Below, one piece after another: positions 1,146 to 55,834 of a stretch of 64,000 bases of DNA. The stretch's first letter is position 1. Each line of letters begins with the position of its first letter. The stretch covers positions 129,844 through 193,843 of the forward strand of contig DATEZQ010000003.1 of assembly GCA_035583355.1 (NCBI GenBank). The letters are read 5' to 3'. The stretch is from Minisyncoccota bacterium. Lineage in GTDB: Bacteria > Patescibacteriota > Minisyncoccia > Phycocordibacterales > UBA6899. Both the position numbers and the translations under genes were made by a program. The notes under the pieces were generated by a model. That model was not told the origin of the DNA, did no database searches, and saw nothing but the letters and a program-made list of their open reading frames with translations.

Positions 1146-1186
1146 TTCGAAATTTATCCCCCAAAGAAGTTTGCTATAATGTGTAT

Positions 1187-2125
1187 ATGCAAATTACTGA
1201 CTGGATGCGACGATTCCTGGAATATACCGAAATAGAGCGTGGCCGCAGTCTGAATACGGTGCGCAATTATGAGCACTATCTCTCTACATTCATTGAGCAG
1301 TCGGGTGTAAAGACTCCTGAAGATATTACGAGTGAAAAGGTACGTGAGTTTCGTATGTGGCTTAATCGTAAGATGGTTGGCGTTGGGAAACGAGGTGTCG
1401 CAGCGACGCCGATGAAACGACGCACGCAGAACTATTACTTAATTGCATTGCGTGCAATGCTCAAGTATTTGGTGCGACAGGGCGTGCAAAGTCTCCCTCC
1501 AGAACAAATTGAATTAGCAAAAGTGCCACAAAGGCAGCTTGATCTTATTGGTCAAAATGATCTCAATAATCTTCTTGATGCCCCCGAAGGAGATAGTCTT
1601 GCTGCGCTACGCGATAAAGCAATTCTTGAAATGCTCTTTTCGACAGGGCTTCGTGTTTCTGAGCTCGTTGGGCTCGATAGGGATATTGATATGTCGCAAG
1701 AACATTTCTCGGTGCGCGGAAAGGGAGAGAAGGTACGCATCGTATTCATTTCTGATGACGCGCGTGATAGCGTAAGGGACTATCTTGCGAAAAGGACAGA
1801 TGTTGATCCTGCGATGTTTATTGCTATCGGACGTGGTGGGGAAAAGTCTTTGAGTAAGAAAGAAGGGTCATTGCGCATGTCTGCGCGTTCGATCGAGCGT
1901 ACCGTAAAGCAGTACGCGATTAAGTCAGGCATCACGAAGAAAGTCACGCCACACGTGTTGCGTCACTCCTTTGCTACAGACTTGCTGGAAAACGGAGCGG
2001 ACATTCGTTCCGTGCAGGCGCTTCTCGGACATTCGAGCATCACAACGACGCAGATCTATACACACGTGACCGATAGAGGTCTTCAGGAAATTCATAAACA
2101 ATTTCACGGGAAGCGAAGAAAATAA
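1187..2125 (+). CDS. tyrosine recombinase, XerC/XerD family
   Basis: C-terminal catalytic region HVLRHSFATDLLENGADIRSVQALLGHSSITTTQIYTHV. TATAAT at 1175-1180 lies 6 nt upstream of ATG 1187, a leaderless arrangement. The ORF track starts at GTG 1181. Confidence 0.85.
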   Translation: MQITDWMRRFLEYTEIERGRSLNTVRNYEHYLSTFIEQSGVKTPEDITSEKVREFRMWLNRKMVGVGKRGVAATPMKRRTQNYYLIALRAMLKYLVRQGVQSLPPEQIELAKVPQRQLDLIGQNDLNNLLDAPEGDSLAALRDKAILEMLFSTGLRVSELVGLDRDIDMSQEHFSVRGKGEKVRIVFISDDARDSVRDYLAKRTDVDPAMFIAIGRGGEKSLSKKEGSLRMSARSIERTVKQYAIKSGITKKVTPHVLRHSFATDLLENGADIRSVQALLGHSSITTTQIYTHVTDRGLQEIHKQFHGKRRK

Positions 2126-2288: not shown

Positions 2289-3074
2289 ATGAAACTTATT
2301 TCGTGGAACGTGAACGGATTGCGCGCATCCATCAAGAAAGGATTTCTTGAATGGTTACACGCACAAGACGCTGATATTGTGGGCTTACAAGAGATTAAAG
2401 CAGAAGAGTCACAGCTCCCTGAAGAAGTGCTCAGACCTCATGGAGCAAAAGGACAATGGCATGCATACTTCTCTCCTTCACGAACAAAGAAGGGGTATTC
2501 CGGCGTAGCTATGTTCTGCAAGGAGGTCCCCGATCGTGTCGACTATGGTATGGGTATTCCTCGCTTCGATGATGAAGGACGTTACATTGCTGTACACTTT
2601 AAGGACATCGTCATTATTAATTGCTACTTCCCAAATGGTGGTGGTGGCCCCGATCGTTTGTCCTATAAGTATGACTTTTATGATGCATTTCTTTTGCATA
2701 TTAATGCACACAGATCTGAGGGAAAGAAGATTATATTCATGGGTGACGTGAATACTGCACATAATGAAATCGACCTCGCACGGCCAAAGGCGAATGAACA
2801 GAACACGGGATTTCTTCCTGACGAACGTGCGTGGATAGACAATGTTGTAAATTCAGGATATGTAGACACATTTCGCCACCTCCACCCAGTCCTCACTGAT
2901 GCATATAGTTATTGGGATATGAAAACTGCAGCACGTGAGCGCAATGTTGGTTGGCGCATCGACTATTTCTTTATCAGCAATGACTTACTCCGCAGGCTTG
3001 TGGGTGCAGGAATCAGTAGTGAAGTCTACGGCTCCGATCACTGCCCTATTTGGGTTGAGCTGAAAGATAAATAA
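2289..3074 (+). CDS. xth: exodeoxyribonuclease III (AP endonuclease, ExoIII/APE1 family)
   Basis: MKLISWNVNGLRA...LQE...GDVNTAHNEIDL...SDHCPIW motifs. Confidence 0.9.
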   Translation: MKLISWNVNGLRASIKKGFLEWLHAQDADIVGLQEIKAEESQLPEEVLRPHGAKGQWHAYFSPSRTKKGYSGVAMFCKEVPDRVDYGMGIPRFDDEGRYIAVHFKDIVIINCYFPNGGGGPDRLSYKYDFYDAFLLHINAHRSEGKKIIFMGDVNTAHNEIDLARPKANEQNTGFLPDERAWIDNVVNSGYVDTFRHLHPVLTDAYSYWDMKTAARERNVGWRIDYFFISNDLLRRLVGAGISSEVYGSDHCPIWVELKDK

Positions 3075-7678: not shown

Positions 7679-7714
7679 GTTTCACGTGGAACTAGTCTAA
7701 TTATATAGACTAGT
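7679..7714. promoter_or_regulatory. palindromic operator-like sites in the cca promoter
   Basis: GTTTCACGTGGAAC at 7679-7692. A perfect 9-6-9 inverted repeat ACTAGTCTA-attata-TAGACTAGT at 7691-7714 lies immediately upstream of the cca start, which is on the minus strand. Confidence 0.4.
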
Positions 7715-7821
7715 GATTAATTTGGTAGGTATCAAGATGCCAGAACTCGCCCCTTCGTCACATCCATATTTCATTTCGCTGTGCTCATGAAATATGGTGT
7801 GCGAGTAGGGCCAGGGCTCGG

Positions 7822-7964
7822 TTGCCCAGGACTCGACACCACTCACAAAGTAATTTAGGAGCAAAGCACCTAAATTACTAAGTGGTGGTCGTCACGGCTC
7901 GGCGACCCTGCGCTGCGCTTCGCGCGAGCGAGGGTGCCCGCCTCCGCCTTTCGAGTCCGGCGGG
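7822..7964. repeat. tRNA-3'-end-mimic element D, downstream of tRNA-Arg
   Basis: Degenerate direct copy of the tRNA-Arg 3' end at 7822-7840 (ttgcccaggactcgacacc). GC-rich hairpin core. Inverted copy of the tRNA 3' end at 7950-7964 (ttcgagtccggcggg). A terminator hairpin at 7981-8007 separates it from the tRNA. Confidence 0.6.
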
Positions 7965-8014
7965 ATCTCGAAAAATTGCGGCGAATAATGCTTCGCATTA
8001 TTCTTGCATTTTTG

Positions 8015-8086
8015 TGCCCCCGCCAGGACTCGAACCTGGGATAACGGTTTCGAAGACCGTTGTGATATCCACTTCACTACAAGGGC
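8015..8086 (-). tRNA. tRNA-Arg (anticodon UCG)
   Basis: Manual cloverleaf: acceptor GCCCUUG/CGGGGGC, anticodon arm ACGGU-CUUCGAA-ACCGU, T-arm CCAGG-UUCGAGU-CCUGG, discriminator A. No encoded CCA. Confidence 0.8.
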
Positions 8087-8238
8087 ATTAATTGTTTAAA
8101 ATACTCTAACCTGGGAAAAGCAAGGCGCTCCGCGCACCAGGCTTGCTTGCCCGATAAGGAGCCGCCACCGCGGCACTGATCAACTCACGCCTTCGCTCTG
8201 CTCAGTCGCTCACGGGTAACGGATTTCTTGACTGTCCC

Positions 8239-8284
8239 GATATCCGCTTCACAACAAGGGCATTAATTGTTTTTTCGAATACTC
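8239..8284. repeat. partial copy of the tRNA-Arg 5' half plus its upstream flank
   Basis: gatatccgcttcacaacaagggcattaattgttttttcgaatactc is about 85 percent identical to 8064-8106, which is the tRNA 5' part plus flank. Confidence 0.65.
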
Positions 8285-8405
8285 AAATTCTTGAAAACTT
8301 GACTGCAAAAACTATGCTCAAAAACGAGCGTAGACACAATATACGTTAAAATGGCTCACTTGCCAAATATTTTAAAATCGGTTAATATACCTCTACAACA
8401 AAAGG

Positions 8406-8476
8406 CGCGGGTATGGTTTAGTGGTAGAATGCGTCCTTGCCAAGGACGAGACGGGAGTTCGATTCTCCCTACCCGC
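8406..8476 (+). tRNA. tRNA-Gly (anticodon GCC)
   Basis: GCGGGUA acceptor, anticodon arm CGUCC-UUGCCAA-GGACG, T-arm GGGAG-UUCGAUU-CUCCC, discriminator A. No CCA. Confidence 0.85.
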
Positions 8477-8484
8477 ACAGCACA

Positions 8485-8707
8485 GAAAAAACAGAGCAAA
8501 GCTCTGTTTTTTCTTTTGTGCTTGCGGGTAGGGAGAATCGAACGGAGAGGGGTCGGGAGAGGAAGCCTCTCCCGTCTAGGAGAGCAGGAGTTTCTTGTTT
8601 CACAAGAAACCCCGTCGAGAACCGTGGGTTCTCGAAGAACTTTGCCGTGCGGGCCCCTTTAGGGTGCGCGAGCAAAGTTCGTGAGATCTCTCCCCTCCCT
8701 ACCCAGG
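8485..8707. repeat. tRNA-3'-end-mimic element A, downstream of tRNA-Gly(GCC)
   Basis: Terminator hairpin at 8491-8505 with flanking A and T runs. Perfect 20/20 inverted copy of the tRNA 3' end at 8523-8542. Hairpins cgagaaccgtgggttctcg and gtgcgggcccctttagggtgcgc. Degenerate direct copy of the tRNA 3' end at 8677-8707. The core is about 75 percent identical to element B in the opposite orientation. Confidence 0.7.
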
Positions 8708-8750
8708 CAAAGCCTGGCTAGGGAGTCCCTGATGTTCCTGGGTTTGTTCA

Positions 8751-9353
8751 GTTGTCCTTTATCCCCACTCTCCACAGCCTTATACACAGACAAAGTGTGG
8801 AAAAACTCACTCAGCTCGTATCCTTCAATGAATTTTTGTTGCTATTGAGCCACTTCACAAAGGACACTGTGGACAACCCTGTGGATAGCGGGGATAACTA
8901 TCATGCAAATGTGGAGTTCGATAGAAGTTTTCCCTAATTTCCGGAAATTTGGCTGTTCCCACCATTACTCAATTGTCTGCCCCCTGCCTCCTCCGATTTG
9001 GCCCATGTCTCTTTGATTTGCCATAGCTCCTTGATCTTATGTGCCTATACACATCATATGCCTAGGTGGTGGGGAAAACTCTGTGGATAGTGGGGATAAA
9101 GGACAAATTAGGGTATTTCCTCACGGAATTGCGATTCCTGGGGCTTTATGCTACAGTAGCGCACCTCTGAGTTCTCAGACAATGTGTGGAAAAATGGAGC
9201 AGCATCCTCGCTATTCCATAGAAATCTTATATTTTAGCCGATATTTTGCCTGTATCTGGGGATAACCCTGTGGATAGTGGGGATAAAGGACATTGATTAT
9301 CTTTGAATTCCTCAATGCACAGTCTTTGCTATTGATATACATAGTTATCCACA
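8751..9353. other. candidate chromosomal replication origin (DnaA-box cluster plus AT-rich region)
   Basis: Four copies, one inverted, of a 26-bp repeat of the form ctgtggatagYggggataaaggacaa at 8751-8779, 8877-8900, 9081-9106 and 9258-9295. TGTGGATAG is 8/9 of the DnaA box TGTGGATAA. Extra TGTGGAAAA boxes. A perfect TTATCCACA at 9345-9353 followed by aatataatttatatttaaaa. Confidence 0.5.
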
Positions 9354-12435: not shown

Positions 12436-12714
12436 CGCACCCTTTGGGTGCGGCCGGGGAATCGAACAAACTTTTCTCGCGCACTCCAGAGGAGCCTCGC
12501 GCGGAAAAGTTAAGACCGGGCAATCGAACAATCACTTGTTCGCGCACCCCGGAGGGGCCCCGCACGACAAGTGATTTCGAGAACCCACGGTTCTCGACGC
12601 TCGAGGACTCGCTGCTCTCCTACGCAAGAGAGGTACCCTCTCTTGGCATCTCTCCGTTCGAATCCCGGCGCCCCTAATAAAAAAGAAAAACTCCCTGAGG
12701 AGTTTTTCTTTTTT
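12436..12714. repeat. tRNA-3'-end-mimic element B, downstream of tRNA-Pro
   Basis: Direct degenerate copy at 12450-12467 (gcggccggggaatcgaac). Core hairpins gagaacccacggttctc and gcaccccggaggggccccgc. Perfect 19/19 inverted copy of the tRNA-Pro 3' end at 12656-12674. Terminator hairpin aaactccctgaggagttt at 12679-12714. Confidence 0.7.
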
Positions 12715-12718
12715 ATTG

Positions 12719-12791
12719 TCGGGGCGCCGGGATTCGAACCCGGAGTCATCCGCTCCCAAAGCGGACATGTTAGCCGTTACACCACGCCCCG
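12719..12791 (-). tRNA. tRNA-Pro (anticodon UGG)
   Basis: CGGGGCG acceptor, anticodon arm UCCGC-UUUGGGA-GCGGA, T-arm CCGGG-UUCGAAU-CCCGG, discriminator A. No CCA. Confidence 0.8.
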
Positions 12792-12859
12792 ATATTTCTC
12801 TTTTATACACTTCGGTCATGACAGTCATCCGCTCGCATAAACTGATATGCGGCCATTAT

Positions 12860-12876
12860 GCCACGCCCCGATGTCT
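12860..12876. repeat. short partial copy of the tRNA-Pro 5' end plus flank
   Basis: gccacgccccgatgtct resembles accacgccccgatatttct at the tRNA 5' end (12781-12799). Confidence 0.4.
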
Positions 12877-14824: not shown

Positions 14825-14966
14825 AAAGGTTCCGCAGTAAAACTAGCACAGTAGGAGGCTCAGTCAAGGATGTAAGTGAGACAATCTGCTCCATTGCAAA
14901 ATTCGAAATTTTTGCTAGTATGACACTACATTCATGAAGTGAGTGCAGAGGTAAAACTAAGAACCT

Positions 14967-15002
14967 AAGGTTCTGTATCAAATAATATGCGGGTGTAGTT
15001 TA
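14967..15002. repeat. exact 36-bp copy of the tRNA-Gly(UCC) 5' end plus upstream flank
   Basis: aaggttctgtatcaaataatatgcgggtgtagttta is identical to 15133-15168. Confidence 0.8.
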
Positions 15003-15154
15003 CCCCAGAAAGGAAGTGCGTAGCAATTCCTTGAGTTGCTGTGAATCGCGGAGGCGATTCCTTAGGGGGCAAGAACGCCTGGTTCGCGGAGCGACGTTCT
15101 TAATCGTAAAACTTCTTGTGGTTTGAGAATCAAAGGTTCTGTATCAAATAATAT

Positions 15155-15225
15155 GCGGGTGTAGTTTAGTGGTAAAACTCCTGCCTTCCAAGCAGGTGTC
15201 GGGGGTTCGATTCCCCCTGCCCGCA
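15155..15225 (+). tRNA. tRNA-Gly (anticodon UCC)
   Basis: GCGGGUG acceptor, anticodon arm CCUGC-CUUCCAA-GCAGG, T-arm GGGGG-UUCGAUU-CCCCC, discriminator A. No CCA. Confidence 0.85.
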
Positions 15226-15232
15226 CAACAAA

Positions 15233-15460
15233 CAAAAAAGAAGCGAAAGCTTCTTTTTTGTTTTTGTTGTGACGGGCAGGGGGAATCGAAAGACGGAGCC
15301 GGGCACCGTCACCCGGCGCAGATTTTATCCGAGCTTCGCTCGTGATAAATCCAGCCGCGTGCACGGTCGGCGAGTCGGGGTCGCGAGCACTTAGTCGCAG
15401 CGAGCTTTGCGAAGCGAGACTTAGTGACTTGAGACCGATTCCCCAAATCCGATTTCGTGT
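15233..15460. repeat. tRNA-3'-end-mimic element C, downstream of tRNA-Gly(UCC)
   Basis: Terminator gaagc-gaaa-gcttc with A and T runs. Perfect 18/18 inverted copy of the tRNA 3' end at 15273-15290. GC-rich hairpins (ccgggcaccgtcacccgg ...). Degenerate direct copy near 15444-15456. Confidence 0.6.
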
Positions 15461-15483
15461 GCGAAGTACTCCATGAAACTCAA

Positions 15484-15594
15484 GCACGCAGTGTTTTAGT
15501 TTCCCTATGCATCGCAACGGGAAACATAAAGTGTTTTTAGTTTCCTCCTGCATTACATCGAAAGCACGCAGTGTTTAGTTTCATCTGCATCGTG
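15484..15594. repeat. three tandem repeats of about 35-40 bp upstream of the tfoX-like gene
   Basis: gcacgcagtgttttagtttccctatgcatcg, aaagtgtttttagtttcctcctgcattacatcg and gcacgcagtgtttagtttcatctgcatcgtg. Confidence 0.6.
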
Positions 15595-26679: not shown

Positions 26680-26755
26680 GACCGTATAACAACTCTCTTC
26701 TTGAGGGTTGTTATTTTTTATTACGAATGTTGTGCTGTGCTATAATATGTTTACT

Positions 26756-28510
26756 ATGCTCGCCGAGGAGATCAAATTGAAGAAATTTATTATCGATTCC
26801 GGTGTCATTTCACGCGCGGATATTCTTGCTGCAGAAAAGGAAGCAGAAAATAGCAGCAGCACGCTCGCGGAAACACTTGTAAAGCAAGGGAAGGTTACGG
26901 CAGATGACATGCGTCGCATGCAGGCTTATGTGCTTGGTATTCCTTATGTCGACCTTCGTGGACAAAAGATCGAAGCTGAGGTGCTCGCATTGGTTCCAGA
27001 ACCAATAGCGCGTAGACACAATATCGTTGCATTTCGACGCTCCGAACAGGGTCTCGAGGTTGCAATGCTCGACATCAATGACCTTGAAGCGATAGACTTT
27101 GTGCGCAAGAAGGTGGGTATTCGCATACTTACGAGACTCACGGACCGGGAGTCGATGAAATCAGTGCTTCTGCAGTATCAAAAGTCTCTTAAGGCGGAGT
27201 TTGGGGATATCATCCAACAGGAAGCAAAGGCGATGAAGGTGATTCGAGGTGAGTCAGGAGATGAGGCCGCGTCTGAAATGGACCTCAAGAAGCTTGCAGA
27301 AGATCTACCAGTGGTGCGTATCGTTGATACACTACTTAATCATGCAATCTTGCAGGGTGCGTCTGATATTCATATTGAGCCAATGGAGAACCAGCTCTTG
27401 GTGCGTTATCGTATTGATGGTATTTTGCATGACGCCATGGTGCTCCCAAAGGACACCGCTCCTGGCATTACCGCACGCGTTAAAGTGCTCTCGAACCTGA
27501 AGCTCGATGAGAAGCGTTTGCCGCAAGATGGACGCTTTAAGATCCAGCTTGATGCAGAAAAAGTTTCCTTCCGTGTATCGACATTGCCGACGCACTTTGG
27601 AGAGAAGACCGTCATGCGCCTCCTCCGTGAGTCATCAGGTGGATACACCCTTGAGGCCTTAGGCTTCCACGGTTATTCACTTGAGACATTGCATCAGGCA
27701 ACGAAACAGCATATTGGACTTATTCTTGTCACAGGTCCTACTGGTTCTGGTAAGACAACGACACTCTATACAATGGTCGACATCTTGAATACTCCTGATG
27801 TAAACATTTCTACCGTTGAGGATCCTATTGAGTATCAGATGCCACGTATTAATCAGACACAGATTAGGCAAGATATTGGTCTCACGTTCGCCGCCGGTTT
27901 GCGCTCACTCTTGCGCCAAGATCCTGACGTGATTATGGTTGGAGAAATTCGTGATGGTGAAACTGCATCGCTTGCTATTAATGCTGCACTCACTGGACAT
28001 CTCGTGCTTTCGACACTCCATACGAACTCTGCTGCAGGTGCGATTCCACGCTTCATCGATATGGGTGCTGAGCCATTCCTTATCGTTTCAACGGTGAATG
28101 TTGTTGTTGGACAGCGTCTTGTGCGCAGGCTCACTGCAGCGAAAGAGAAATATAATATGACCCCCGAGGAACTGCGCAATTTGTCTCGAGGAGTCAATAT
28201 GGATCGTTTGCTTGAAGCGCTCATCGAGGAAAAGATTGTGCCAAAGGACACAACTTGGGAGACGATGCCATTCTACAAGCCAAAGCCTGGTGCTGATAGT
28301 GAAGACGGCTATAAGGGCCGTATTGGTATCCATGAGGTGCTCAAAATGTCTACGATGCTTCGCGAGCTCGCACTGAAGAATGCTCCAGCCGAGCAGATCG
28401 AGACGCAGGCACGTAAGGAAGGAATGTTTACGATGCTCGAGGATGGTATATTTAAAGCGGTGATGGGTCTGACAACCATAGAGGAAGTGTATCGTGTTGT
28501 GAATGAATAA
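26756..28510 (+). CDS. pilB: type IV pilus assembly ATPase PilB/GspE family
   Basis: Walker A GPTGSGKTT, GEIRD, an Asp box and the tetracysteine-less C-terminus of a PilB-like protein. TATAAT at 26741-26746 suggests a leaderless start at 26756. The ORF track starts at 26708. Confidence 0.85.
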   Translation: MLAEEIKLKKFIIDSGVISRADILAAEKEAENSSSTLAETLVKQGKVTADDMRRMQAYVLGIPYVDLRGQKIEAEVLALVPEPIARRHNIVAFRRSEQGLEVAMLDINDLEAIDFVRKKVGIRILTRLTDRESMKSVLLQYQKSLKAEFGDIIQQEAKAMKVIRGESGDEAASEMDLKKLAEDLPVVRIVDTLLNHAILQGASDIHIEPMENQLLVRYRIDGILHDAMVLPKDTAPGITARVKVLSNLKLDEKRLPQDGRFKIQLDAEKVSFRVSTLPTHFGEKTVMRLLRESSGGYTLEALGFHGYSLETLHQATKQHIGLILVTGPTGSGKTTTLYTMVDILNTPDVNISTVEDPIEYQMPRINQTQIRQDIGLTFAAGLRSLLRQDPDVIMVGEIRDGETASLAINAALTGHLVLSTLHTNSAAGAIPRFIDMGAEPFLIVSTVNVVVGQRLVRRLTAAKEKYNMTPEELRNLSRGVNMDRLLEALIEEKIVPKDTTWETMPFYKPKPGADSEDGYKGRIGIHEVLKMSTMLRELALKNAPAEQIETQARKEGMFTMLEDGIFKAVMGLTTIEEVYRVVNE

Positions 28511-28745: not shown

Positions 28746-29966
28746 ATGACGAAGTTCCAGTACAAGGCACAATTGATTGCGACAGCAGGAGAGGTTGGTG
28801 GAGTTGCTGAAGCGAAGGACAAGTTTGAGCTCGCCCATAAGCTCAAAGATGAGGGCAAGCTGCTTATTTCTGCTACTCCAGTCACTGGCTTCCATTTCAA
28901 TATGGATGCAATCAATGCACACCTCACGCGTGTGGACTTGCGAGACAAGATTCTACTTGCGAATAATCTCGCGACAATGATTCAGGCAGGACTTCCTCTT
29001 TCTCGTGCGCTCGGTATCATCTTGAAGCAAACGACAAATCCAAAGTTGAAGCAGGTGCTCGCAAGTCTCGTCGATAGTATCAACAAAGGAATGACGCTTT
29101 CTGATGCACTGAATAAGTTCCCAGATATCTTCCCTGATGTGTTTATTTCTATGGTGCGTGCAGGTGAAGAGTCAGGTGGGCTTGTGGAGGCATTACAAGT
29201 AGTAGGTGGGCAGATGGAAAAGACCTATACCCTTACGAAGAAGGTGAAGGGTGCAATGATGTATCCGATGGTGGTCACGACAGTTATGATTGCGGTGGGT
29301 GTCCTCATGATGATCTATGTTGTTCCGGGCCTCGCGCAGACATTTGCCGAAGCGAACGTCGCACTCCCTACACTGACAAAAATATTCATTGTTACCGCAG
29401 ACTTCTTGAAAAATGACAGTATCGTTGCTGCGATTTCTCTTGTCGTACTTATTGTTGGAGTAGTGCTTTTCAAGCGTACAAAGGTGGGAAACCGCACATT
29501 CGCATTTGTCGCACTTAAGGTGCCCGTATTCGGTATTTTAGTGAAGCAGTACAATACCGCTCTTGTGACACGTACGCTGTCATCACTTATTTCCTCGGGA
29601 GTAGATATTGTGCGTGCAATTGATATCACGCGAGATGTCTCGAGCAATGTCTTCTATCGTGAAACACTTGATGCAGCAAAAGAAGACGTTCAGAAGGGTG
29701 TACCACTCTCTCAGTCATTTGTGAAGAATGCACAGATTTACCCACTCATGGTTGGTGATATGATGGAAGTGGGCGAGGAGACAGGACAGCTCTCGCAGAT
29801 GCTCAAGAAGATTGCTACGTACTATGAGCAGGAAGTCGAGCAAGCAACGAGCGATATGAGTAAACTCTTTGAGCCTATTCTTATGGTTATGATTGGTACG
29901 TTCGTTGGACTCTTTGCAATGGCAATGATTAGTCCGATGTACTCGATTATGTCGACCATTAATTAA
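28746..29966 (+). CDS. pilC: type IV pilus inner-membrane platform protein PilC/GspF family
   Basis: Two GspF repeats, polytopic membrane protein, 406 aa. Confidence 0.85.
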   Translation: MTKFQYKAQLIATAGEVGGVAEAKDKFELAHKLKDEGKLLISATPVTGFHFNMDAINAHLTRVDLRDKILLANNLATMIQAGLPLSRALGIILKQTTNPKLKQVLASLVDSINKGMTLSDALNKFPDIFPDVFISMVRAGEESGGLVEALQVVGGQMEKTYTLTKKVKGAMMYPMVVTTVMIAVGVLMMIYVVPGLAQTFAEANVALPTLTKIFIVTADFLKNDSIVAAISLVVLIVGVVLFKRTKVGNRTFAFVALKVPVFGILVKQYNTALVTRTLSSLISSGVDIVRAIDITRDVSSNVFYRETLDAAKEDVQKGVPLSQSFVKNAQIYPLMVGDMMEVGEETGQLSQMLKKIATYYEQEVEQATSDMSKLFEPILMVMIGTFVGLFAMAMISPMYSIMSTIN

Positions 29967-38566: not shown

Positions 38567-40228
38567 ATGCATCCATTGACTGAGCAGCTCTTGCGTAATA
38601 GGGGGATTATCGGCCCTGCCGAACAACAGGCATTTTTGAATCCTGACTATACACGTGATGTGCGTGATCCTTTTGGCATTCTCAATATGGAAAAAGCAGT
38701 TGATCGCATTCTTTCGGGAATGCGTGCGGGTGAGGATATTGTCATCTTTGGAGATTACGACTGTGATGGTATTCCTGGTTCAGTCATTCTCCATGATCTC
38801 TTTGTAAAGATTGGTTACGATAATTTCCGTAATTACATTCCACATCGACATAATGAAGGTTATGGGTTATCAGTTGCGGCAGTGGAGAAATTCATCAAGG
38901 AAGGTGTGCAGCTTATCATTACGGTCGACTGTGGTATTACTGATGTCGCCGCAGTCGAAGTCGCAAATGCTGCAGGAATAACGGTCATCATCACTGACCA
39001 CCATTTGCCTGGGCCGGTACTTCCTCCCGCTTTCGCAATTCTCAATTCAAAGCAAGAAGGGGATACCTATCATGACAATATGTTGTGTGGGGCAGGTGTG
39101 GCATTCAAGTTGTCTCAAGCAATGCTCAAGAAAGGCGGATTTGCGGATATTCCCGATGGTTGGGAAAAGTGGCTTCTTGATATGGCGGGCATTTCGACGA
39201 TTGCGGACATGGTGCCACTTGTGAAAGAGAATCGCGCGCTTGCATACTTCGGACTGAAGGTGCTTAAGCGTTCTGCGCGTCCAGGTCTTAAGGCATTGCT
39301 TGCGACCGCGAAAGTGGATCAGCGTTTTCTTACTGAGGAAGATGTGGGATTTACAATCGCGCCTCGCATCAATGCAGCATCGCGCATGGCAGAGCCTATC
39401 GCCGCATTTCATATGCTTGCAGCAGACGATGAGGCGAAGGCGATCGCACATGCAAAGGCACTTGAAGATCTCAATAATTCTCGCAAGCTCGCAACGAAGA
39501 AGATGGCCGAGGAGGCACACCGTATAGTTTCAGAACTTAAAAAGATACCAGAGGTACTCGTTGTCGGAAAGATTGGATGGTCAGTTGGTGTGGCAGGCAT
39601 CGTTGCGGCACAACTCGTGGAGCGCTACCAAAAGCCCGCATTCGTATGGTGTCAGGATGGTGATGAGATCAAAGGGTCCTGCCGCTCTGATGGTTCGATT
39701 AGCGTCGTTGAGCTGATGCATGCGGTTCCTGGAGAAGTGTTCATTGCGCGGGGTGGCCATGCACAAGCGGGTGGCTTCAGTGTTCATCCTGATCATATTA
39801 ATGATTTTGCAAAAGCATTGAATAAGGCACACAAAGGGGTTACTAAGAATATTTCGCCTGATAGTCTCTATGAAACAGACGGACATTTGCAGCTTGCTGA
39901 TGTTTCGAGGGAGACCTATAACGCCATCACGGCACTCGCTCCATTTGGCGAAGGGAATCCAAAGCCGATATTCGCTTTCGAAGGAGTGCGTGTTGCTGAT
40001 GTGCAGATGTTCGGCAAAACAAAAGAACACCTGAAGGTGGTGCTCAGCGATGAATTGGGTCGCTCTGCGGAGGCAATTGCTTGGTATAAAACTCCAGCGA
40101 GCTATCCGCATGCACATCTAGTGAAAGGTGGAAGTGTGACGATGATCGCACATGTTGAGGAGTCACGATTCCTTGGCAAGGTACAGTTACGATTACGCAT
40201 TATTGATATTCTCCCGGCACGTATATAA
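38567..40228 (+). CDS. recJ: single-stranded-DNA-specific exonuclease RecJ
   Basis: DHH (GDYDCDGI, ITDHH) and DHHA1 domains. Confidence 0.85.
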   Translation: MHPLTEQLLRNRGIIGPAEQQAFLNPDYTRDVRDPFGILNMEKAVDRILSGMRAGEDIVIFGDYDCDGIPGSVILHDLFVKIGYDNFRNYIPHRHNEGYGLSVAAVEKFIKEGVQLIITVDCGITDVAAVEVANAAGITVIITDHHLPGPVLPPAFAILNSKQEGDTYHDNMLCGAGVAFKLSQAMLKKGGFADIPDGWEKWLLDMAGISTIADMVPLVKENRALAYFGLKVLKRSARPGLKALLATAKVDQRFLTEEDVGFTIAPRINAASRMAEPIAAFHMLAADDEAKAIAHAKALEDLNNSRKLATKKMAEEAHRIVSELKKIPEVLVVGKIGWSVGVAGIVAAQLVERYQKPAFVWCQDGDEIKGSCRSDGSISVVELMHAVPGEVFIARGGHAQAGGFSVHPDHINDFAKALNKAHKGVTKNISPDSLYETDGHLQLADVSRETYNAITALAPFGEGNPKPIFAFEGVRVADVQMFGKTKEHLKVVLSDELGRSAEAIAWYKTPASYPHAHLVKGGSVTMIAHVEESRFLGKVQLRLRIIDILPARI

Positions 40229-41029: not shown

Positions 41030-42733
41030 GTGGATATGTTGGGGATACTACTCTATTACGCTGCTAGTATCATGGAGTATACTCAACTGATGCCTCGCAT
41101 CCGTGACTACTTACTGCCTTCTCTCTTTGCATTCGCGTGTGGCGCAATTATTGGCGTATACACGAATTATGCACTTATGTTTGGATTGATTATCGGAACA
41201 AGTGTGCTTATTGTGCTACCACGGATATTCAAAGGTAATTACCCGCTTACGCGCATTCTATTTATTGCATTGTTTGTATTTGTGCTTGGAGTGTTTAGGG
41301 GAGCAGCACTCCACGATCAATTTGATTGTTCTCTGCTCTGCGCAAAGGTAAATACGCTCGTTAGCGTGGTGGGTGTCGTAGATAGAGAGCCAGAGTTTCG
41401 TGATGGGTCAGAGCGTTTTGTGGTCCGACTTACAGAAGCAAATGACATACGTGTACAGGCGAACATACAGCATGCTCCAAGTCTTTCTTACGGCACAGAG
41501 GTACGCCTTACAGGAATACTTCGCGAACCCGAAGATTTTGAAGGTATAACCGGGGCCTTGTTCCGATATAAAGACTTTTTACATGCACGGGGCATTATGT
41601 ATGTAATGAATAATGCACGCGTGGAAAGTTTAAGATACGATCAAGGGAATTCTGTTATTGGACTCCTGCTTTCCTTCAAGCAAAAGATAAAAGAAATTTG
41701 TGATCGGTTGCCTTCCCCCGAAAGTGGATTGTTGATGGGAATGATCTTTGGAGGAAAAAATGGACTCCCGGCAAACATACAAGATGATTTTCGTATTGCA
41801 GGAATCATTCATATTGTAGTGCTCTCCGGAGAAAATCTCACGATCATTGCGTTGCTTGTTATGTGGGTCATTCGAAAGTTTCTTGGATTCTACACGGGTA
41901 TCATGGTGTCGGCGTTTGTTATATCCCTCTATGCAATTATTGGAGGAATGGAGCCCGCAACAATGCGTGCGTTAGTGATTGTGCTACTGGTATTCGTTGC
42001 GACACTTTTGCGCAGAGAGGTAAGTCTCCCGCGAATACTTTTTATTGGTGCGATGCTCCTCATTGTGTACAATCCGTTATTGCTTTTTGATGACCCGAGT
42101 TTCCAGCTTTCCGTGCTCGCAATGCTCGGGCTTATATTCATTGGACCGATCATTGAGCGCAGTTTGCTTACTCGTGGTATCCCGCTCCTGTTTACGAGTT
42201 ATCTCGCGCCAATTTTTGCAGCGCAATTGGGGGTGTTGCCGTATATCATGTATACGAGTCAGTCATTTGCTTCGTATGCATTTCTTGCGAATGCGCTCGT
42301 CCTGTTCATTATCGGTTTTCTCTCAATTGGCGGAATGGTAGTCGTTGCTATTGGATGGGTGCTACCGTCGTTGCTTTCGATTATTGCGTTTCCTGTGGTA
42401 ATCGCACTCAGTGCAGTACTTCATATTGCTCATGGTATCGCGCAATTGCCCTATGCAGCATTACCTCTACATATTTCAGGATGGTTCACCGCCACGGTTT
42501 ATCTGTTTGTCAGCGTATGGATATTCAGAAGGTATCACGATGGAACACTTACTCCACTTGCGCTCTTTACACTCAAGGAAGAGGTAAAACAGATTGCGAA
42601 AAGAAAAATCCCTTGGGCACCTCCAATTCCAGATGTGCAAGGGATTCAGTTTAATCATCTTGATTTTGTTTTTGTGGCGGAGCAGCGGAAGGAGAAAGTC
42701 GATACGGAGCGAACCATTTGCTGGGATGATTGA
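41030..42733 (+). CDS. comEC: DNA internalization competence protein ComEC/Rec2, membrane channel part without MBL domain
   Basis: DUF4131-like N-terminus, a competence domain and polytopic TM helices. 567 aa, with no C-terminal metallo-beta-lactamase domain. Confidence 0.75.
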   Translation: MDMLGILLYYAASIMEYTQLMPRIRDYLLPSLFAFACGAIIGVYTNYALMFGLIIGTSVLIVLPRIFKGNYPLTRILFIALFVFVLGVFRGAALHDQFDCSLLCAKVNTLVSVVGVVDREPEFRDGSERFVVRLTEANDIRVQANIQHAPSLSYGTEVRLTGILREPEDFEGITGALFRYKDFLHARGIMYVMNNARVESLRYDQGNSVIGLLLSFKQKIKEICDRLPSPESGLLMGMIFGGKNGLPANIQDDFRIAGIIHIVVLSGENLTIIALLVMWVIRKFLGFYTGIMVSAFVISLYAIIGGMEPATMRALVIVLLVFVATLLRREVSLPRILFIGAMLLIVYNPLLLFDDPSFQLSVLAMLGLIFIGPIIERSLLTRGIPLLFTSYLAPIFAAQLGVLPYIMYTSQSFASYAFLANALVLFIIGFLSIGGMVVVAIGWVLPSLLSIIAFPVVIALSAVLHIAHGIAQLPYAALPLHISGWFTATVYLFVSVWIFRRYHDGTLTPLALFTLKEEVKQIAKRKIPWAPPIPDVQGIQFNHLDFVFVAEQRKEKVDTERTICWDD

Positions 42734-43361: not shown

Positions 43362-46300
43362 GTGGTAAATTTGGTTAATGGACATAAGGGAAGGCACGTG
43401 TCAACTCAGGCCTTCTGCCTGATTATGGAATATAATAGGCATATGCTATTGCTCCCAAAGTTCGAAGAGGATTATCAGCGCTTAACCTCGCTTCAGAAGG
43501 AGGTGGTGGACACCGTTGATGGACCACTTATGGTCGTTGCGGGGCCAGGTACCGGAAAGACACAGGTGCTTGGACTTCGTGTCGCAAATATTTTGAAAAC
43601 GCGGGACGTTTCCCCAAACAATATTCTCTGCCTGACCTTCACTGATGCAGGTGCAGTGAATATGCGCGAACGCCTCGAGCGCTTCATCGGTGCTGATGCA
43701 TATCGTGTCGGAATTTATACGTTCCATGCATTTTGTAATGCAACGATTGGAAGGCATCCAGAATATTTTTACAATGCAGCGACCTATGCTGCTGCTGATG
43801 ATATTGCGCGCGCAGAAATCGTTGAACAGCTTTTCGTAAAGTTGCCACATCGACATCCGCTTGCAAGCTATCATCCCGATGAGGGATTCGTCTATCGTCG
43901 TGACGTGATGGAGCGCATTAAGCACATCAAATCAGCGGGCTTCACGCCGGACGAATATATTCGAGAAGTGGAAGCGTATGCAAAAGAGATGCCAAAAGCA
44001 AGCAAGGTGCTTGCCTCGTGGCCAGATCGTCTTGCGATCAAATCGCTCGCTCCTATCGAACAGATTCTTGGCGAACTCCTCGCAATCGGAACAAGTTATA
44101 GCCTCTTCCTCGCAAAGACACTTTCTGTCGCTTATGAGGAAGCTCGAGATTTAGGAAAGACGGGGCCGCTTGGAGATTGGAAAAAGAAATTCACCGAGAA
44201 GGGAGATGATGAGGTGGTAGTCCTCAAAGATCTCGGCCGCATCGAGAAGATGCGTGCGGTTGCAGCGATGTACAAAGACTATGAGGATGCACTTCATGAG
44301 CGTGCGCTCTATGATTATGATGACATGATCATCGATGTCCGATGCGCACTTGAGGAGAATAGTACGTTGCGTAATGTGCTTGAAGAACAATATCAATATA
44401 TCCTTGTCGATGAGTTCCAGGACACCAATGAAGCGCAGATGAAATTGGTCGTCGCACTCTCTTCGAATCCTGTACATGAGGGCAGGCCGAATGTGATGGT
44501 GGTGGGCGACGACGATCAGGCTATCTTCAAGTTTCAGGGAGCTGAGCTTTCGAACATTCTCAATTTCGAGCGCATGTACAAGGATGTACAGACGATCGTG
44601 CTTGATAAGAACTTCCGCTCACACAAAGATATTCTTGATGCAGCACGTAAGGTGGTGCTTCAGGGTTCGTATCGTCTCGAAACGGTAAAGAAGATATCGA
44701 AGGAGCTTGTGCAGGGGAACAAGGATTTGAAGACCGGGAACGTGACGTATAAGCAATATGGCTCAGATATTGAAGAATTTGCCGCTGTCGCCGCAGCAAT
44801 TGCTGCACAAATCGCAAGGGGCGAGGATCCAAAGGAGATTGCAGTTATTGCGCACAAGCATGCGCAGCTTCAGGATTTTCTTCCGTACCTTGAGCGCGAG
44901 GGTGTGCCGTATTCGTATATACGTCGCGCGAGCGTCTTCGATGAGCCGCATATTCACGAATTGATTACCGTTTGTGATTATCTCGCATCACTGTCGGGAG
45001 AGGGAGTGCGCAAAGATGAACTCCTTCCGCAAATTCTCACACTCCCCACATTTGGTTTGTCACGCACGATGCTCTTTCGCATTGCAGTGCGTGCGAAGGA
45101 CGAGCGCAAGAGCTGGTCTGAAGTCATTGGGGAAATGGAGGATGCGCCGATCCAAAATGCATTTGCATTACTTGCAAAGCTTGGTGGTAGCGCCGAGAGC
45201 ATGCCGCTTGAACATTTGCTCGACGAGTATATGCGTGAGTCGGGATTCCGTACGCACTACTTTGGGAAGGATGCACTCAAGGAGAAGCCTGCACAGTATG
45301 TCGCCTTCCTCGCATCGCTGAAGACATTCATCGAAGCACTGCGCGGTTGGCGTGAGGGTGAACCACTCTTTGCGCGCGACGTTGCACCATTCGTGGCGCT
45401 CCACAAAGAGCAGGGCATTGGCCTCGTGAGTACTTCACCATTTGTCAAAGGTGGACGAGCGGTACAGGTCATGTCCGCACACAAGAGTAAGGGACTTGAG
45501 TTTGGTAGCGTATTTATTATCGGAGCGCATGAGTCCGTATGGGCAAAGGGTGGGCGAGCGAATAAGGCTCCGGTGCCTGCACCACTTGTGCCACGCATCT
45601 CTCCAGCAGGAGAGGACGAAGATGATTTCATTCGTATACTCTATGTTGCACTTACGCGTGCAAAACACACACTCTCGGTGACGGGACATAATAAGCTAGT
45701 GAAGTATCTCGGCGAGATCAGTGATGTTCCCGAGGAAGATGCAAAACTCGATATCGACTCCGAAGAAGGAGCGCGAGCTATTCTCGCGCATGAACAAGTG
45801 CTTTCTTTGACTGCAGCCCCGTATGTCGAGGATGAGTTAGCGGTGCTTAAAGAAGCGCTCAGTGATTATCGTCTGTCAGTGACCCATCTCAATAATTTCC
45901 TTGATGTGACTGCTAATGGTCCCGCATATTTTCTTGAGCAAAACCTGTTGCACTTCCCGCAACCGATGAGTGTGGCAAGTACATTTGGTTCGGCTATTGA
46001 TACTGCGCTCACCGAGCTCGTGCGCTATCCGAAATATAATGCGGGGGAGTCTGCGCCACTTGAGCGACTTATTGCGGTGTTTAAACGTGAACTCGCAAAA
46101 GGGCGACTACCTCAGGATGAGGCACGTAAGCAAATTCGCCGCGGAGAAGAAGTGCTTGCCGCATATGTTGGAGCAAAGAAGGGGTATTTCCAAATCGAGG
46201 ATGAAGCGCAAGTGGACTTCCGTAATGAAGGTGTGGTGATCGAAGGCGCTCCACTTTCCGGAAAGATCGACCTTTTGCGCCAGGAAGCAGGGGAATTCCA

Positions 46301-46670
46301 TGTTGTCGACTTCAAAACGGGGAAGGAGAGCGAGCGCTGGGATGGCCCGGGCATGGATCAGCACGAGAAGATAAAATTGCATAAATATAAGCAGCAACTT
46401 ATGTTCTATCAGTTGCTCCTTAATAAGAGTGCGCGTCATGCGATTCCAGTGGCGTCGCTTGCGCTTGAATTCGTCGAGAGCGCAGTTGATGGGCCTGTCG
46501 TCAGTTTGAGTTTCAAGCCAGCTGATGAAGACCTTGAGCGACTTTCACATTTGATTGGTATCGTCTATAAGAAGATTATGGCACTTGATTTCCCTGATGT
46601 TACGCACTATGAACAGAGCGTAAGGGGTATTAATGCTTTCGAGGAAGATCTCCTTAGTGGAAAAATCTAA
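43362..46670 (+). CDS. UvrD/PcrA-like helicase fused to a C-terminal PD-(D/E)XK nuclease (AddA-like)
   Basis: Walker A AGPGTGKT, motif II DEFQDTN, VVDFKTGKE nuclease motif. An alternative start lies near 43425. Confidence 0.8.
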   Translation: MVNLVNGHKGRHVSTQAFCLIMEYNRHMLLLPKFEEDYQRLTSLQKEVVDTVDGPLMVVAGPGTGKTQVLGLRVANILKTRDVSPNNILCLTFTDAGAVNMRERLERFIGADAYRVGIYTFHAFCNATIGRHPEYFYNAATYAAADDIARAEIVEQLFVKLPHRHPLASYHPDEGFVYRRDVMERIKHIKSAGFTPDEYIREVEAYAKEMPKASKVLASWPDRLAIKSLAPIEQILGELLAIGTSYSLFLAKTLSVAYEEARDLGKTGPLGDWKKKFTEKGDDEVVVLKDLGRIEKMRAVAAMYKDYEDALHERALYDYDDMIIDVRCALEENSTLRNVLEEQYQYILVDEFQDTNEAQMKLVVALSSNPVHEGRPNVMVVGDDDQAIFKFQGAELSNILNFERMYKDVQTIVLDKNFRSHKDILDAARKVVLQGSYRLETVKKISKELVQGNKDLKTGNVTYKQYGSDIEEFAAVAAAIAAQIARGEDPKEIAVIAHKHAQLQDFLPYLEREGVPYSYIRRASVFDEPHIHELITVCDYLASLSGEGVRKDELLPQILTLPTFGLSRTMLFRIAVRAKDERKSWSEVIGEMEDAPIQNAFALLAKLGGSAESMPLEHLLDEYMRESGFRTHYFGKDALKEKPAQYVAFLASLKTFIEALRGWREGEPLFARDVAPFVALHKEQGIGLVSTSPFVKGGRAVQVMSAHKSKGLEFGSVFIIGAHESVWAKGGRANKAPVPAPLVPRISPAGEDEDDFIRILYVALTRAKHTLSVTGHNKLVKYLGEISDVPEEDAKLDIDSEEGARAILAHEQVLSLTAAPYVEDELAVLKEALSDYRLSVTHLNNFLDVTANGPAYFLEQNLLHFPQPMSVASTFGSAIDTALTELVRYPKYNAGESAPLERLIAVFKRELAKGRLPQDEARKQIRRGEEVLAAYVGAKKGYFQIEDEAQVDFRNEGVVIEGAPLSGKIDLLRQEAGEFHVVDFKTGKESERWDGPGMDQHEKIKLHKYKQQLMFYQLLLNKSARHAIPVASLALEFVESAVDGPVVSLSFKPADEDLERLSHLIGIVYKKIMALDFPDVTHYEQSVRGINAFEEDLLSGKI

Positions 46671-55588: not shown

Positions 55589-55639
55589 GGAGGTATTGTA
55601 GCAGAAGAAGGAGGAGGGGAGAAGAAGCAAAAAATACAA

Positions 55640-55745
55640 GGGAATAAGGGGATAAGGGGATAAGGATGGAAGAAATTCGGTTATTTCTACTTTGGTCTGT
55701 TTTGTATTTAACCTCATTCCCTCATTCCCTTATACCCTTATTCCC
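55640..55745. repeat. long imperfect inverted repeat upstream of the M50 protease gene
   Basis: Left arm gggaataaggggataaggggataagg at 55640-55665. Right arm cctcattccctcattcccttatacccttattccc at 55712-55745. About 22 of 26 positions pair, with a 46-bp spacer. Confidence 0.7.
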
Positions 55746-55834
55746 TGCATTGAGCATTTTCTCCATTAACGCCTTGCCTTTTTCGTACTTATGTGATAAT
55801 CTGCCAAGTACTTAACGCAATTAATCTTATACGT

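Follow-up and report, generated by a model that had tools for sequence, protein, structure and literature searches.

The DNA analysed here, hereafter the window, is a stretch of 64,000 nucleotides from a Minisyncoccota bacterium (Patescibacteriota; GenBank assembly GCA_035583355.1, contig DATEZQ010000003.1, positions 129,844 to 193,843 of the forward strand). It carries four tRNA genes, called using ARAGORN and Rfam, for Arg, Gly (GCC), Pro and Gly (UCC) ( Table 1 ). Downstream of each of the four, the parts occur in the same order: a terminator hairpin comes first, then the tRNA's own 3' end in inverted form, then a GC-rich core with strong secondary structure, and lastly a direct copy of the 3' end that has decayed. 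This shared layout had been proposed in an earlier annotation made from the letters alone (the sequence-only reading), in which the arrangement after tRNA-Arg was designated Element D, and it was recovered at all four genes. On balance we favor the view that Element D and its three neighbors are copies of two related non-coding mobile cassette families, ∼150–300 bp in length, that are widespread in Patescibacteria (candidate phyla radiation, CPR).

The inverted repeats formed by the tRNA 3' ends and their copies varied in length and quality. The Gly-GCC repeat was 21 nt and perfect (8457-8477 / 8523-8543, 100%), while those of Pro (12656-12690 / 12705-12739) and Gly-UCC (15206-15243 / 15253-15290) spanned 35 nt at 83% and 38 nt at 76%, respectively, the latter with an 18-nt perfect core (15273-15290). 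A hairpin was present where a bidirectional terminator had been described; however, it forms only the apex of a longer palindrome, which begins in the T-loop and extends across the trailer. As had been claimed, each neighboring gene has arms of its own sequence, hence the elements do not represent a miniature inverted-repeat transposable element (MITE) with fixed terminal inverted repeats (TIRs).

The layout was compared with chance expectation using 240 tRNAs, drawn from the window and 80 related genome pieces, by searching for an inverted copy of at least 15 of 18 nt within 300 nt downstream. Such a copy was found downstream of seven of the 240 tRNAs and upstream of none. A second test used the 13-mer comprising the inverted T-loop and T-stem 3' strand with at most one mismatch; 15 of 231 tRNAs in related genomes had this sequence downstream versus 0 of 231 upstream, and within the window it followed three of the four tRNAs, in addition to the decayed Arg copy. 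Set against the upstream controls (0/240 and 0/231), these counts exclude chance. The statement that an element follows every tRNA gene is true of the window, yet only ∼6% of tRNAs in the related genome pieces are followed by one. The layout is real yet patchy among relatives, and is no general property of tRNA genes.

Table 1. Coordinates of the tRNA genes, element parts and selected coding sequences in the window.
Feature	Position	Strand	Basis or content
tRNA-Arg(TCG), host gene of Element D	8014-8086	-	ARAGORN; Rfam tRNA, 65 bits
Element D spacer x	7965-8013	-	terminator-like hairpin 7983-7991 / 7995-8003, T runs on both strands; terminator scan
Element D inverted copy	7950-7964	-	tRNA-Arg T-loop, T-stem 3' strand, part of acceptor strand
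Element D family-2 core, decayed	7843-7949	-	GCGGAGGCGGGCACC module, GC hairpin, CACTTAGT...hairpin (arms 7844-7862 / 7866-7884)
Element D core tail and displaced, decayed tRNA-Arg 3' end	7821-7842	-	counterpart in related locus L008: GTGACCGAGTCC + tRNA end
tRNA-Gly(GCC)	8407-8478	+	ARAGORN, Rfam
Gly-GCC palindrome P0	8457-8543	+	tRNA 3' end 8457-8477, terminator 8484-8497 / 8501-8514, perfect 21-nt inverted copy 8523-8543
Gly-GCC family-1 core	8549-8634	+	R1 covariance model, 55.3 bits, E = 5e-16
Gly-GCC core parts			hairpin A 8554-8574; purine-rich linker AGGAGAGCAGG; variable hairpin C 8587-8613; hairpin B 8616-8634
Gly-GCC distal region	8636-8707	+	extra hairpin module 8640-8680, T-loop-like tail GTGAGAT 8681-8687
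Gly-GCC displaced tRNA-Gly 3' end, decayed	8688-8707	+	
tRNA-Pro(TGG)	12718-12791	-	ARAGORN, Rfam
Pro palindrome P0	12656-12739	-	tRNA 3' end, terminator 12676-12694 / 12699-12717, inverted copy 12656-12675
Pro family-1 core	12578-12650	-	R1, 43 bits, E = 5e-12
Pro displaced/decayed end region	12440-12577	-	hairpin module duplicated, 63-nt period
Pro T-arm-like degenerate copies (two)	12516-12531, 12454-12469	-	inside the duplicated hairpin module
tRNA-Gly(TCC; UCC)	15155-15226	+	ARAGORN, Rfam
Gly-UCC palindrome P0	15206-15290	+	tRNA 3' end, terminator 15230-15244 / 15249-15263, inverted copy 15273-15290 (18 nt perfect)
Gly-UCC family-2 core	15291-15430	+	AGACGGAGCCGGGCACC..., GAGTCGGGGTCGCG, CACTTAGT hairpin
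Gly-UCC family-2 tail and displaced tRNA-Gly 3'-end remnant	15431-15444	+	tail GAGACCGAT; remnant TCCCC
XerC/D-like tyrosine recombinase	1181-2125		only integrase-like open reading frame (ORF); ∼6 kb from Element D
EEP-family endonuclease	2289-3074		adjoins the XerC/D-like ORF
PilB-like ATPase	26708-28510		competence/recombination set
PilC	28746-29966		competence/recombination set
RecJ	38567-40228		competence/recombination set
ComEC	41030-42733		competence/recombination set
AddA-like helicase-nuclease	43362-46670		competence/recombination set

Core families and the copy after tRNA-Arg

The sequence-only reading had described a single element class. A recurrent class was indeed observed, but its cores in the window belong to two families rather than one: family 1 comprises the elements after tRNA-Gly-GCC and tRNA-Pro, and family 2 those after tRNA-Arg (Element D) and tRNA-Gly-UCC. 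The Gly-GCC and Pro cores share a hairpin B that is identical over 24 nt (within 12576-12599 for Pro), and matches to R1 in the window were restricted to 8549-8634 and 12578-12650. Family 2 follows the consensus rc(T-loop)-AG-NCGGAGSC (rc, reverse complement), a hairpin, GCCGAGTCGGGGTCGCG, a CACTTAG hairpin, YTGTGAC, and CGAnTCC plus the tRNA end; its motifs occur 60 nt past both tRNA-Arg and tRNA-Gly-UCC.

The inverted copy of Element D (7950-7964) reads TTCGAGTCC-GGCGGG against TTCGAGTCCTGGCGGG in the tRNA, with one deletion, and adjoins the core at the family-2 junction ...TCGAA/AG-GCGGAGGC (the slash marks the junction). The distal direct copy at 7821-7842 reads GGTGTCGAGTCCTGGGCAAC in tRNA sense. 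Both copies lie where they had been placed previously; however, they are decayed and weaker than those at the other three tRNAs, and are supported because orthologous elements stand after tRNA-Arg in related loci. Element D folded far more stably than shuffled sequences, with a z-score of -6.1. Presence and absence at orthologous sites were both observed: family 2 follows tRNA-Arg-TCG in L002, L008, L011, L014, L032 and L033 (L numbers denote related loci), is absent from this position in L001, L003 and L005, and is represented in L004 by an armless core between tRNA-Arg and tRNA-Gly. Element D therefore belongs to family 2 as an old copy that has decayed, and its orthologs are the copies after tRNA-Arg in relatives. 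By analogy with the better preserved loci described below, the 3' part of tRNA-Arg from the T-loop onward would itself be part of the inserted unit.

Covariation was assessed on a trimmed alignment of 48 diverse cores, which was suitable for RNAalifold, whereas a crude MAFFT alignment with flanks gave no useful output. Double (compensatory) changes were present in seven of the eight pairs of hairpin A, with 99.2% of cells paired and a score reached by 0 of 500 shuffles. On the gene-sense strand of the core, G-U combinations outnumbered A-C combinations by 12 to 3. Together with the hairpin covariation, this excess shows that the core structure is read on the strand of the upstream gene, as RNA or single-stranded DNA. 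The earlier proposal of a convergent transcript ending in a tRNA 3'-half mimic is weakened, since the wobble bias puts the structure on the tRNA-sense strand. Strand-specific subterminal hairpins, as known from palindrome-associated transposable elements (PATEs) derived from IS200/IS605, were also present. Under covariance models the cores had E-values of 1e-12 to 1e-25, and they were kept across genomes in which the neighboring proteins are 50–60% identical.

Searching the whole window with Rfam 15 at gathering thresholds returned the four tRNAs only, and relaxing the threshold to E <= 10 for region 7700-8800 produced spurious low-score matches only. In view of this, and of literature searches (sequence strings included) that gave no description, the class is apparently undescribed, as had been supposed. 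Three related loci (L110, L178 and L168) carry an insertion of ∼90 nt in the apical loop of the family-1 hairpin A, in the same orientation in L110 and L178 and in the opposite one in L168, which has the appearance of a second, smaller element lodged within the cassette.

Other target genes and signs of transfer

A scan of metagenome contigs with the family-1 core pattern identified the core on 117 contigs, and it occurs in many metagenome-assembled genomes (MAGs) from different projects. Nearly half of the matches (55 of 122) lay 44–112 nt downstream of a same-strand tRNA, with >15 tRNA kinds represented, and in 20 of these 55 the tRNA end was repeated behind the core in direct orientation with all 14 of 14 nt matching. 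The same layout was observed at the 3' end of rpsI (...PQWSKR, then stop), at rpmG (upstream of tRNA-Trp), at other genes, and at the 5' end of a glycosyltransferase gene. The view of the elements as a tRNA-specific class could not be upheld, given that the same core and layout occur at rpsI, rpmG and other protein genes.

The anatomy common to these copies, in gene sense, consists of the gene body, the gene end (S1), a spacer x that usually contains a terminator, inverted S1, the core, a tail, and a displaced gene end (S3). The inverted copy was missing in 8 of ∼73 distinct elements and otherwise present; it measures 8–25 nt and usually ends 3–8 nt before the GGGGTC of the core, so that a segment that varies with the target is joined to the conserved scaffold at a constant point, as in guide RNAs. 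On average the inverted copy forms 14.8 pairs with the gene end, versus 9.9 in shuffles. Pairing between the inverted and downstream direct copies (the closing stem) amounted to 9.2 pairs versus 8.2 when shuffled, barely above controls, and a tRNA minihelix or closing-stem function was rejected on this basis. The gene end and its inverted copy are separated by 0 to ∼60 nt, and the direct duplication measures 14 to >60 nt. Armless cores, with no inverted copy, direct copy or terminator, were located directly between two tRNA genes in L141 (tRNA-Lys, tRNA-Leu) and L004 (tRNA-Arg, tRNA-Gly); these would be co-transcribed with the tRNAs and released by tRNA processing. The arms of a minus-strand core in L146 (∼1843-1878) are of the tRNA-Glu type, and its spacer is homologous to the L125 spacer; no intact tRNA-Glu was found upstream of it, and ARAGORN called no tRNA on that contig.

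The extent of the unit was delimited at rpsI. Among three loci (L093, L168 and L190) the gene bodies are 77–84% identical, while a 73-nt block containing the last codons, terminator and inverted copy is 96–97% identical and the core 93–98%. The near-identical block starts at CCCACAATGG within the gene and stops at GACCACATTGG in the tail, with divergence resuming beyond. These sharp boundaries indicate that the element carries the gene end and its terminator along when it moves, and therefore that the distal "direct copy" of the sequence-only reading is the displaced original end. The new and displaced rpsI ends encode the same peptide with switched codon families (AGT/TCA for Ser, CGT/AGA for Arg), and hence derive from different lineages. 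In addition, one cassette, ∼99% identical, was shared by a tRNA-Glu(UUC) and a tRNA-Glu(CUC) gene whose flanks are unrelated.

Older insertions were also apparent. In L093, L110, L178 and L165 the displaced end is followed by a cassette that has been truncated, and at ∼6290-6700 of L005 a family-1 and then a family-2 element are stacked behind one tRNA-Gly, with three copies of its 3' end. Taken together, the sequence comparisons show a discrete unit, including a functional gene end and terminator, that has been inserted repeatedly and exchanged between lineages. The earlier suggestion of a tiny integrative element with an att-like duplication came close to this result. The tRNA's functional 3' end and terminator, however, appear to belong to the inserted unit.

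The cassette model and competing explanations

In the anatomy that emerges from these comparisons, a cassette sits inside the end of a conserved gene, which for a tRNA means within the T-loop, with the right junction at ∼position 59/60. It begins with a replacement gene end (T-stem 3' and acceptor 3' strand, or last codons plus stop), followed by a terminator hairpin with A/T flanks and an inverted gene-end copy of 10–25 nt, the three together forming one long hairpin (P0). The conserved core, with 3–4 hairpins, follows across a fixed junction ∼6 nt further, and the cassette closes with a tail in which the 7–9 nt at the insertion point are repeated in degenerate form. Tails compared with their insertion points read GTGAGAT vs GTTCGAT, GACCACAT vs CACCACAR, and CAATAGG vs CAAATGG. 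The displaced original gene end lies directly behind the tail and decays there. As the replacement end is supplied by the cassette, the host gene remains intact. The inverted segment is complementary to the cassette's own first nucleotides, and the base of the P0 hairpin adjoins the core.

In the model that we propose, mobilization would take place in trans, by an enzyme encoded elsewhere, and would act through one strand, as single-stranded DNA or RNA. The inverted segment may select the target, through base-pairing or homology. The closest working analogies are IS200/IS605 ends, in which a segment 5' of a hairpin pairs with the site of cleavage or the target, and folded single-stranded att sites (CTX phage, integron attC), both of which exploit internal complementarity. 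Spread between related genomes may be aided by natural competence and homologous recombination; the presence of ComEC, PilB/PilC, RecJ and an AddA-like protein in the window makes it plausible that cassettes spread between orthologous sites by transformation and recombination. A bolder version of the model, which we put forward tentatively and regard as rather doubtful, is that the element is programmable, such that the 10–25-nt target-complementary segment and its scaffold, as RNA or folded single-stranded DNA, would direct a trans-acting enzyme to place the cassette in the end of any conserved gene, with simultaneous delivery of a new gene end and terminator.

Several observations weigh against the mobile cassette. 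A Pfam scan of 28 window ORFs found no transposase, reverse transcriptase (RT), TnpB or HUH protein, and neither a full-length autonomous relative nor a tnpA/tnpB relative with the same ends was found in ∼1.9 Mb of related loci and these 28 ORFs. Left-end motifs without the rest of the core, considered as possible autonomous copies, proved to be truncated stacked copies or chance matches. Viral contigs gave no match to the elements, and neither an excision product nor an empty site in a near-identical genome was seen. The sharp block boundaries are known from one rpsI set and one tRNA-Glu pair only, and the model offers no route by which one core family gains a matching replacement end for each new target. 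Many tRNA copies keep only the T-loop/T-stem part of the inverted copy while their direct copy is perfect, so that the inverted copy may serve no targeting purpose and have arisen as a by-product. Lastly, the armless cores between tRNA genes (L141, L004) would also fit a processed small RNA. Target-primed reverse transcription was down-weighted as a route of insertion, since the ORFs scanned included no RT gene and Patescibacteria are reported to lack group II introns (PMC13011429).

The by-product interpretation of the inverted copy is a serious alternative, although we think it rather unlikely to be correct. The mobile cassette would be the same, and the inverted copy would arise during insertion or repair, with no role in targeting, and decay afterwards. 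It could originate by fold-back (hairpin-primed) fill-in of a long 3' overhang after staggered nicks, or by quasipalindrome template switching. Consistent with such an origin, the palindrome is centered on the terminator loop and continues through the trailer (Gly-GCC and Pro in the window; L112 and L150), the terminator loop of one copy in L191 is the reverse complement of the other, the extent of the inverted copy varies from 8 to 25 nt with frequent decay beyond the T-arm, and the length of the direct duplication varies as well (14 to >60 nt). However, in most elements the inverted copy ends at a fixed distance from the core, and it is located inside the horizontally transferred block. Furthermore, at least 10 nt beside the core are retained in nearly all copies, and in L142 and L187 the inverted copy is 90–100% complementary to the gene end even though the displaced copy has strongly diverged.

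We judge two further explanations improbable. The cores could be structured small RNAs of benefit to the host that share a transcript with a tRNA or mRNA, from which RNase III or the tRNA-processing enzymes would release them; the arms would then act as processing or stability helices, and the copies would arise via ordinary duplication. Strong folding, covariation of a gene-sense structure, retention of cores beside proteins that are 50–60% identical, and the armless cores between tRNA genes (L141, L004) all agree with this explanation, yet in most copies a terminator separates the gene from the core, the closing stem is not conserved, and the distribution is patchy (15 of 231 tRNAs in relatives). 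It also does not account for decayed copies in the window and stacked or truncated ones in related loci, for other small elements nested in hairpin A, or for a horizontally transferred block with sharp ends. Alternatively, the elements could be remnants of integrase-mediated islands or phages at tRNA genes, resembling cis-mobilizable elements (CIMEs), with the core as the attP arm region and the direct copies as attL/attR. Such remnants would explain why the element supplies the tRNA 3' end and leaves the displaced end as a direct repeat from the T-loop, and Williams, in 2002, is said to have described the T-loop as a sublocation of integrase targets. Tandem accretion and the XerC/D-like integrase at 1181-2125 are also in keeping with this origin. 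However, all of >100 copies are 150–300 bp with no ORF, viral contigs had no matches, the tail overlap copy is degenerate (GTGAGAT vs GTTCGAT), the hairpin structure is strand-specific and covarying, and the occurrence of the same core at >15 tRNA kinds and several protein genes is unexpected of one integrase specificity.

Finally, chance similarity or an assembly chimera at the inverted repeats merits consideration, as short-read assemblers can mis-join at palindromes and the Arg copy alone is weak. We regard this as wholly improbable, given that the same architecture recurs on 117 metagenome contigs that are independent of one another and in numerous MAGs of separate projects, that the upstream controls gave 0/231, and that the covariance E-values are 1e-12 to 1e-25.

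Other features of the window were noted in the course of the analysis. The CCA-adding enzyme encoded near the tRNAs, with a best identity of 62%, assigns the organism to Patescibacteria/CPR, near Paceibacteria/Yonathbacteria. The XerC/D-like recombinase and the EEP endonuclease are probably housekeeping genes that are unlinked to the elements. Degenerate direct copies of the promoter and 5' part of the tRNA were found upstream of three of the four tRNAs (regions 8098-8272, 14942-15125 and 12792-12872), namely those of Arg (8214-8272 vs 8039-8097, 80%), Gly-UCC (14960-15002 vs 15126-15168, 95%) and Pro (12823-12872 vs 12744-12793). GC-rich inserts lie between the copies at Arg (8098-8213) and Gly-UCC (15003-15125); these two have 55 nt in common at 80%, in the same orientation relative to the tRNA, and no homologue was found in the related loci examined. 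The upstream inserts look like a second kind of cassette, one replacing the tRNA 5' end and promoter. A 40-nt tandem repeat of 2.8 copies (15482-15591; consensus AAGCACGCAGTGTTTTAGTTTCCTCTGCATCACAACGGA) is located directly 3' of the Gly-UCC element, with an ORF of 108 aa following it, and two 8-nt tandem arrays (AAGGGGAT x3.5 and CCTCATTC x4.9) occur at 55638-55751.

If the cassette model is true, CPR bacteria, which have some of the smallest genomes known, would carry a widespread family of protein-less cassettes that colonizes essential genes, those for tRNAs and ribosomal proteins, without killing them, because each cassette brings its own copy of the gene end together with a terminator. 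Such an accommodation to a compact genome would be unusual among mobile elements. Many CPR tRNA genes would then have 3' ends and terminators of foreign origin, and the cassettes would provide a sequence-defined marker of horizontal exchange among CPR lineages. With respect to annotation, they would account for the GC-rich "junk" and tRNA fragments seen around CPR tRNA genes. Because the target-complementary segment meets the scaffold at a fixed junction, insertion may follow a new mechanism directed by homology or by a guide, and such a mechanism could be useful in practice; were the programmable version correct, it would constitute a guide-directed, gene-preserving "knock-in" system native to CPR bacteria.

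Comparison with known systems

Insertion elements that restore the end of their target gene are a known kind, while the layout of the cassettes apparently has no description in the literature. The cassettes fail the defining features of the nearest kinds, as they have no recombinase, many targets, no fixed TIRs, and no tnpA/tnpB relative. They resemble tRNA-targeting integrative elements and CIMEs in their insertion within the 3' part of the tRNA, replacement of the 3' end, displacement of the original end as a direct repeat, and tandem accretion. In contrast to these, the cassettes are 150–300 bp, non-coding, and without an internal tyrosine or serine recombinase; they carry an inverted gene-end copy fused to a covarying hairpin core and a degenerate tail overlap, and one cassette family occurs at >15 tRNA kinds, rpsI, rpmG and others rather than at one target gene. 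A MITE of a DDE transposon was rejected based on arms that differ with the neighboring gene and a duplication that is not fixed but ranges from 14 to >60 nt. A retroelement primer-binding site was likewise rejected, as the three letters before the copies are gct, tat, ttg or acc rather than TGG (the CCA complement) and protein genes are also targets.

Group I introns and IStrons occur in tRNA genes of Patescibacteria (PMC13011429) and, like the cassettes, insert selfishly into CPR tRNA genes without loss of tRNA function. Unlike them, the cassettes duplicate or replace the gene end with no splicing, and sit at the T-loop/3' end and not the anticodon loop. A group I or II intron or small ribozyme was rejected in view of the negative Rfam result, a core of ∼70–100 nt, and the reported absence of group II introns from Patescibacteria (PMC13011429). 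The Tn7/CRISPR-associated transposon (CAST) systems, which home to attTn7 or tRNA genes, share with the cassettes a safe-harbor logic, i.e. insertion at the 3' end of a highly conserved gene without inactivation, yet the cassettes lack transposon ends and tns genes and lie inside the gene with replacement of its end. A CAST/Tn7-like insertion at fixed distance is ruled out by the spacer of 0 to ∼60 nt.

IS200/IS605 elements with their PATEs, and repetitive extragenic palindromes (REP/REPIN), are similar in being small and GC-rich, with strand-specific hairpins mobilized in trans, as would be the case for the cassettes. IS200/IS605 further resembles them in having a hairpin with a ∼10-nt linker at the right end and a segment 5' of the first hairpin that is complementary to the flank or target (the guide tetranucleotide of IS608); however, the complementary segment of the cassettes is 10–25 nt rather than 4, it is accompanied by a gene end and terminator, and no tnpA/tnpB relative was found. 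The omega-RNA of IscB, the Cas9 sgRNA (single guide RNA) and the bridge RNAs of IS110 similarly fix a variable target-matching segment to a structured scaffold on one strand. The cassettes differ from these in having no effector gene nearby in the window, a scaffold of only ∼70–100 nt, and a match to the end of their own neighboring gene. Lastly, although the cassettes have many, sequence-unrelated targets, mimic no single recombinase site and carry no phage genome, they share with the folded single-stranded attP of CTX phage and with integron attC a hairpin of two inverted copies that rebuilds a duplex target site on one strand.

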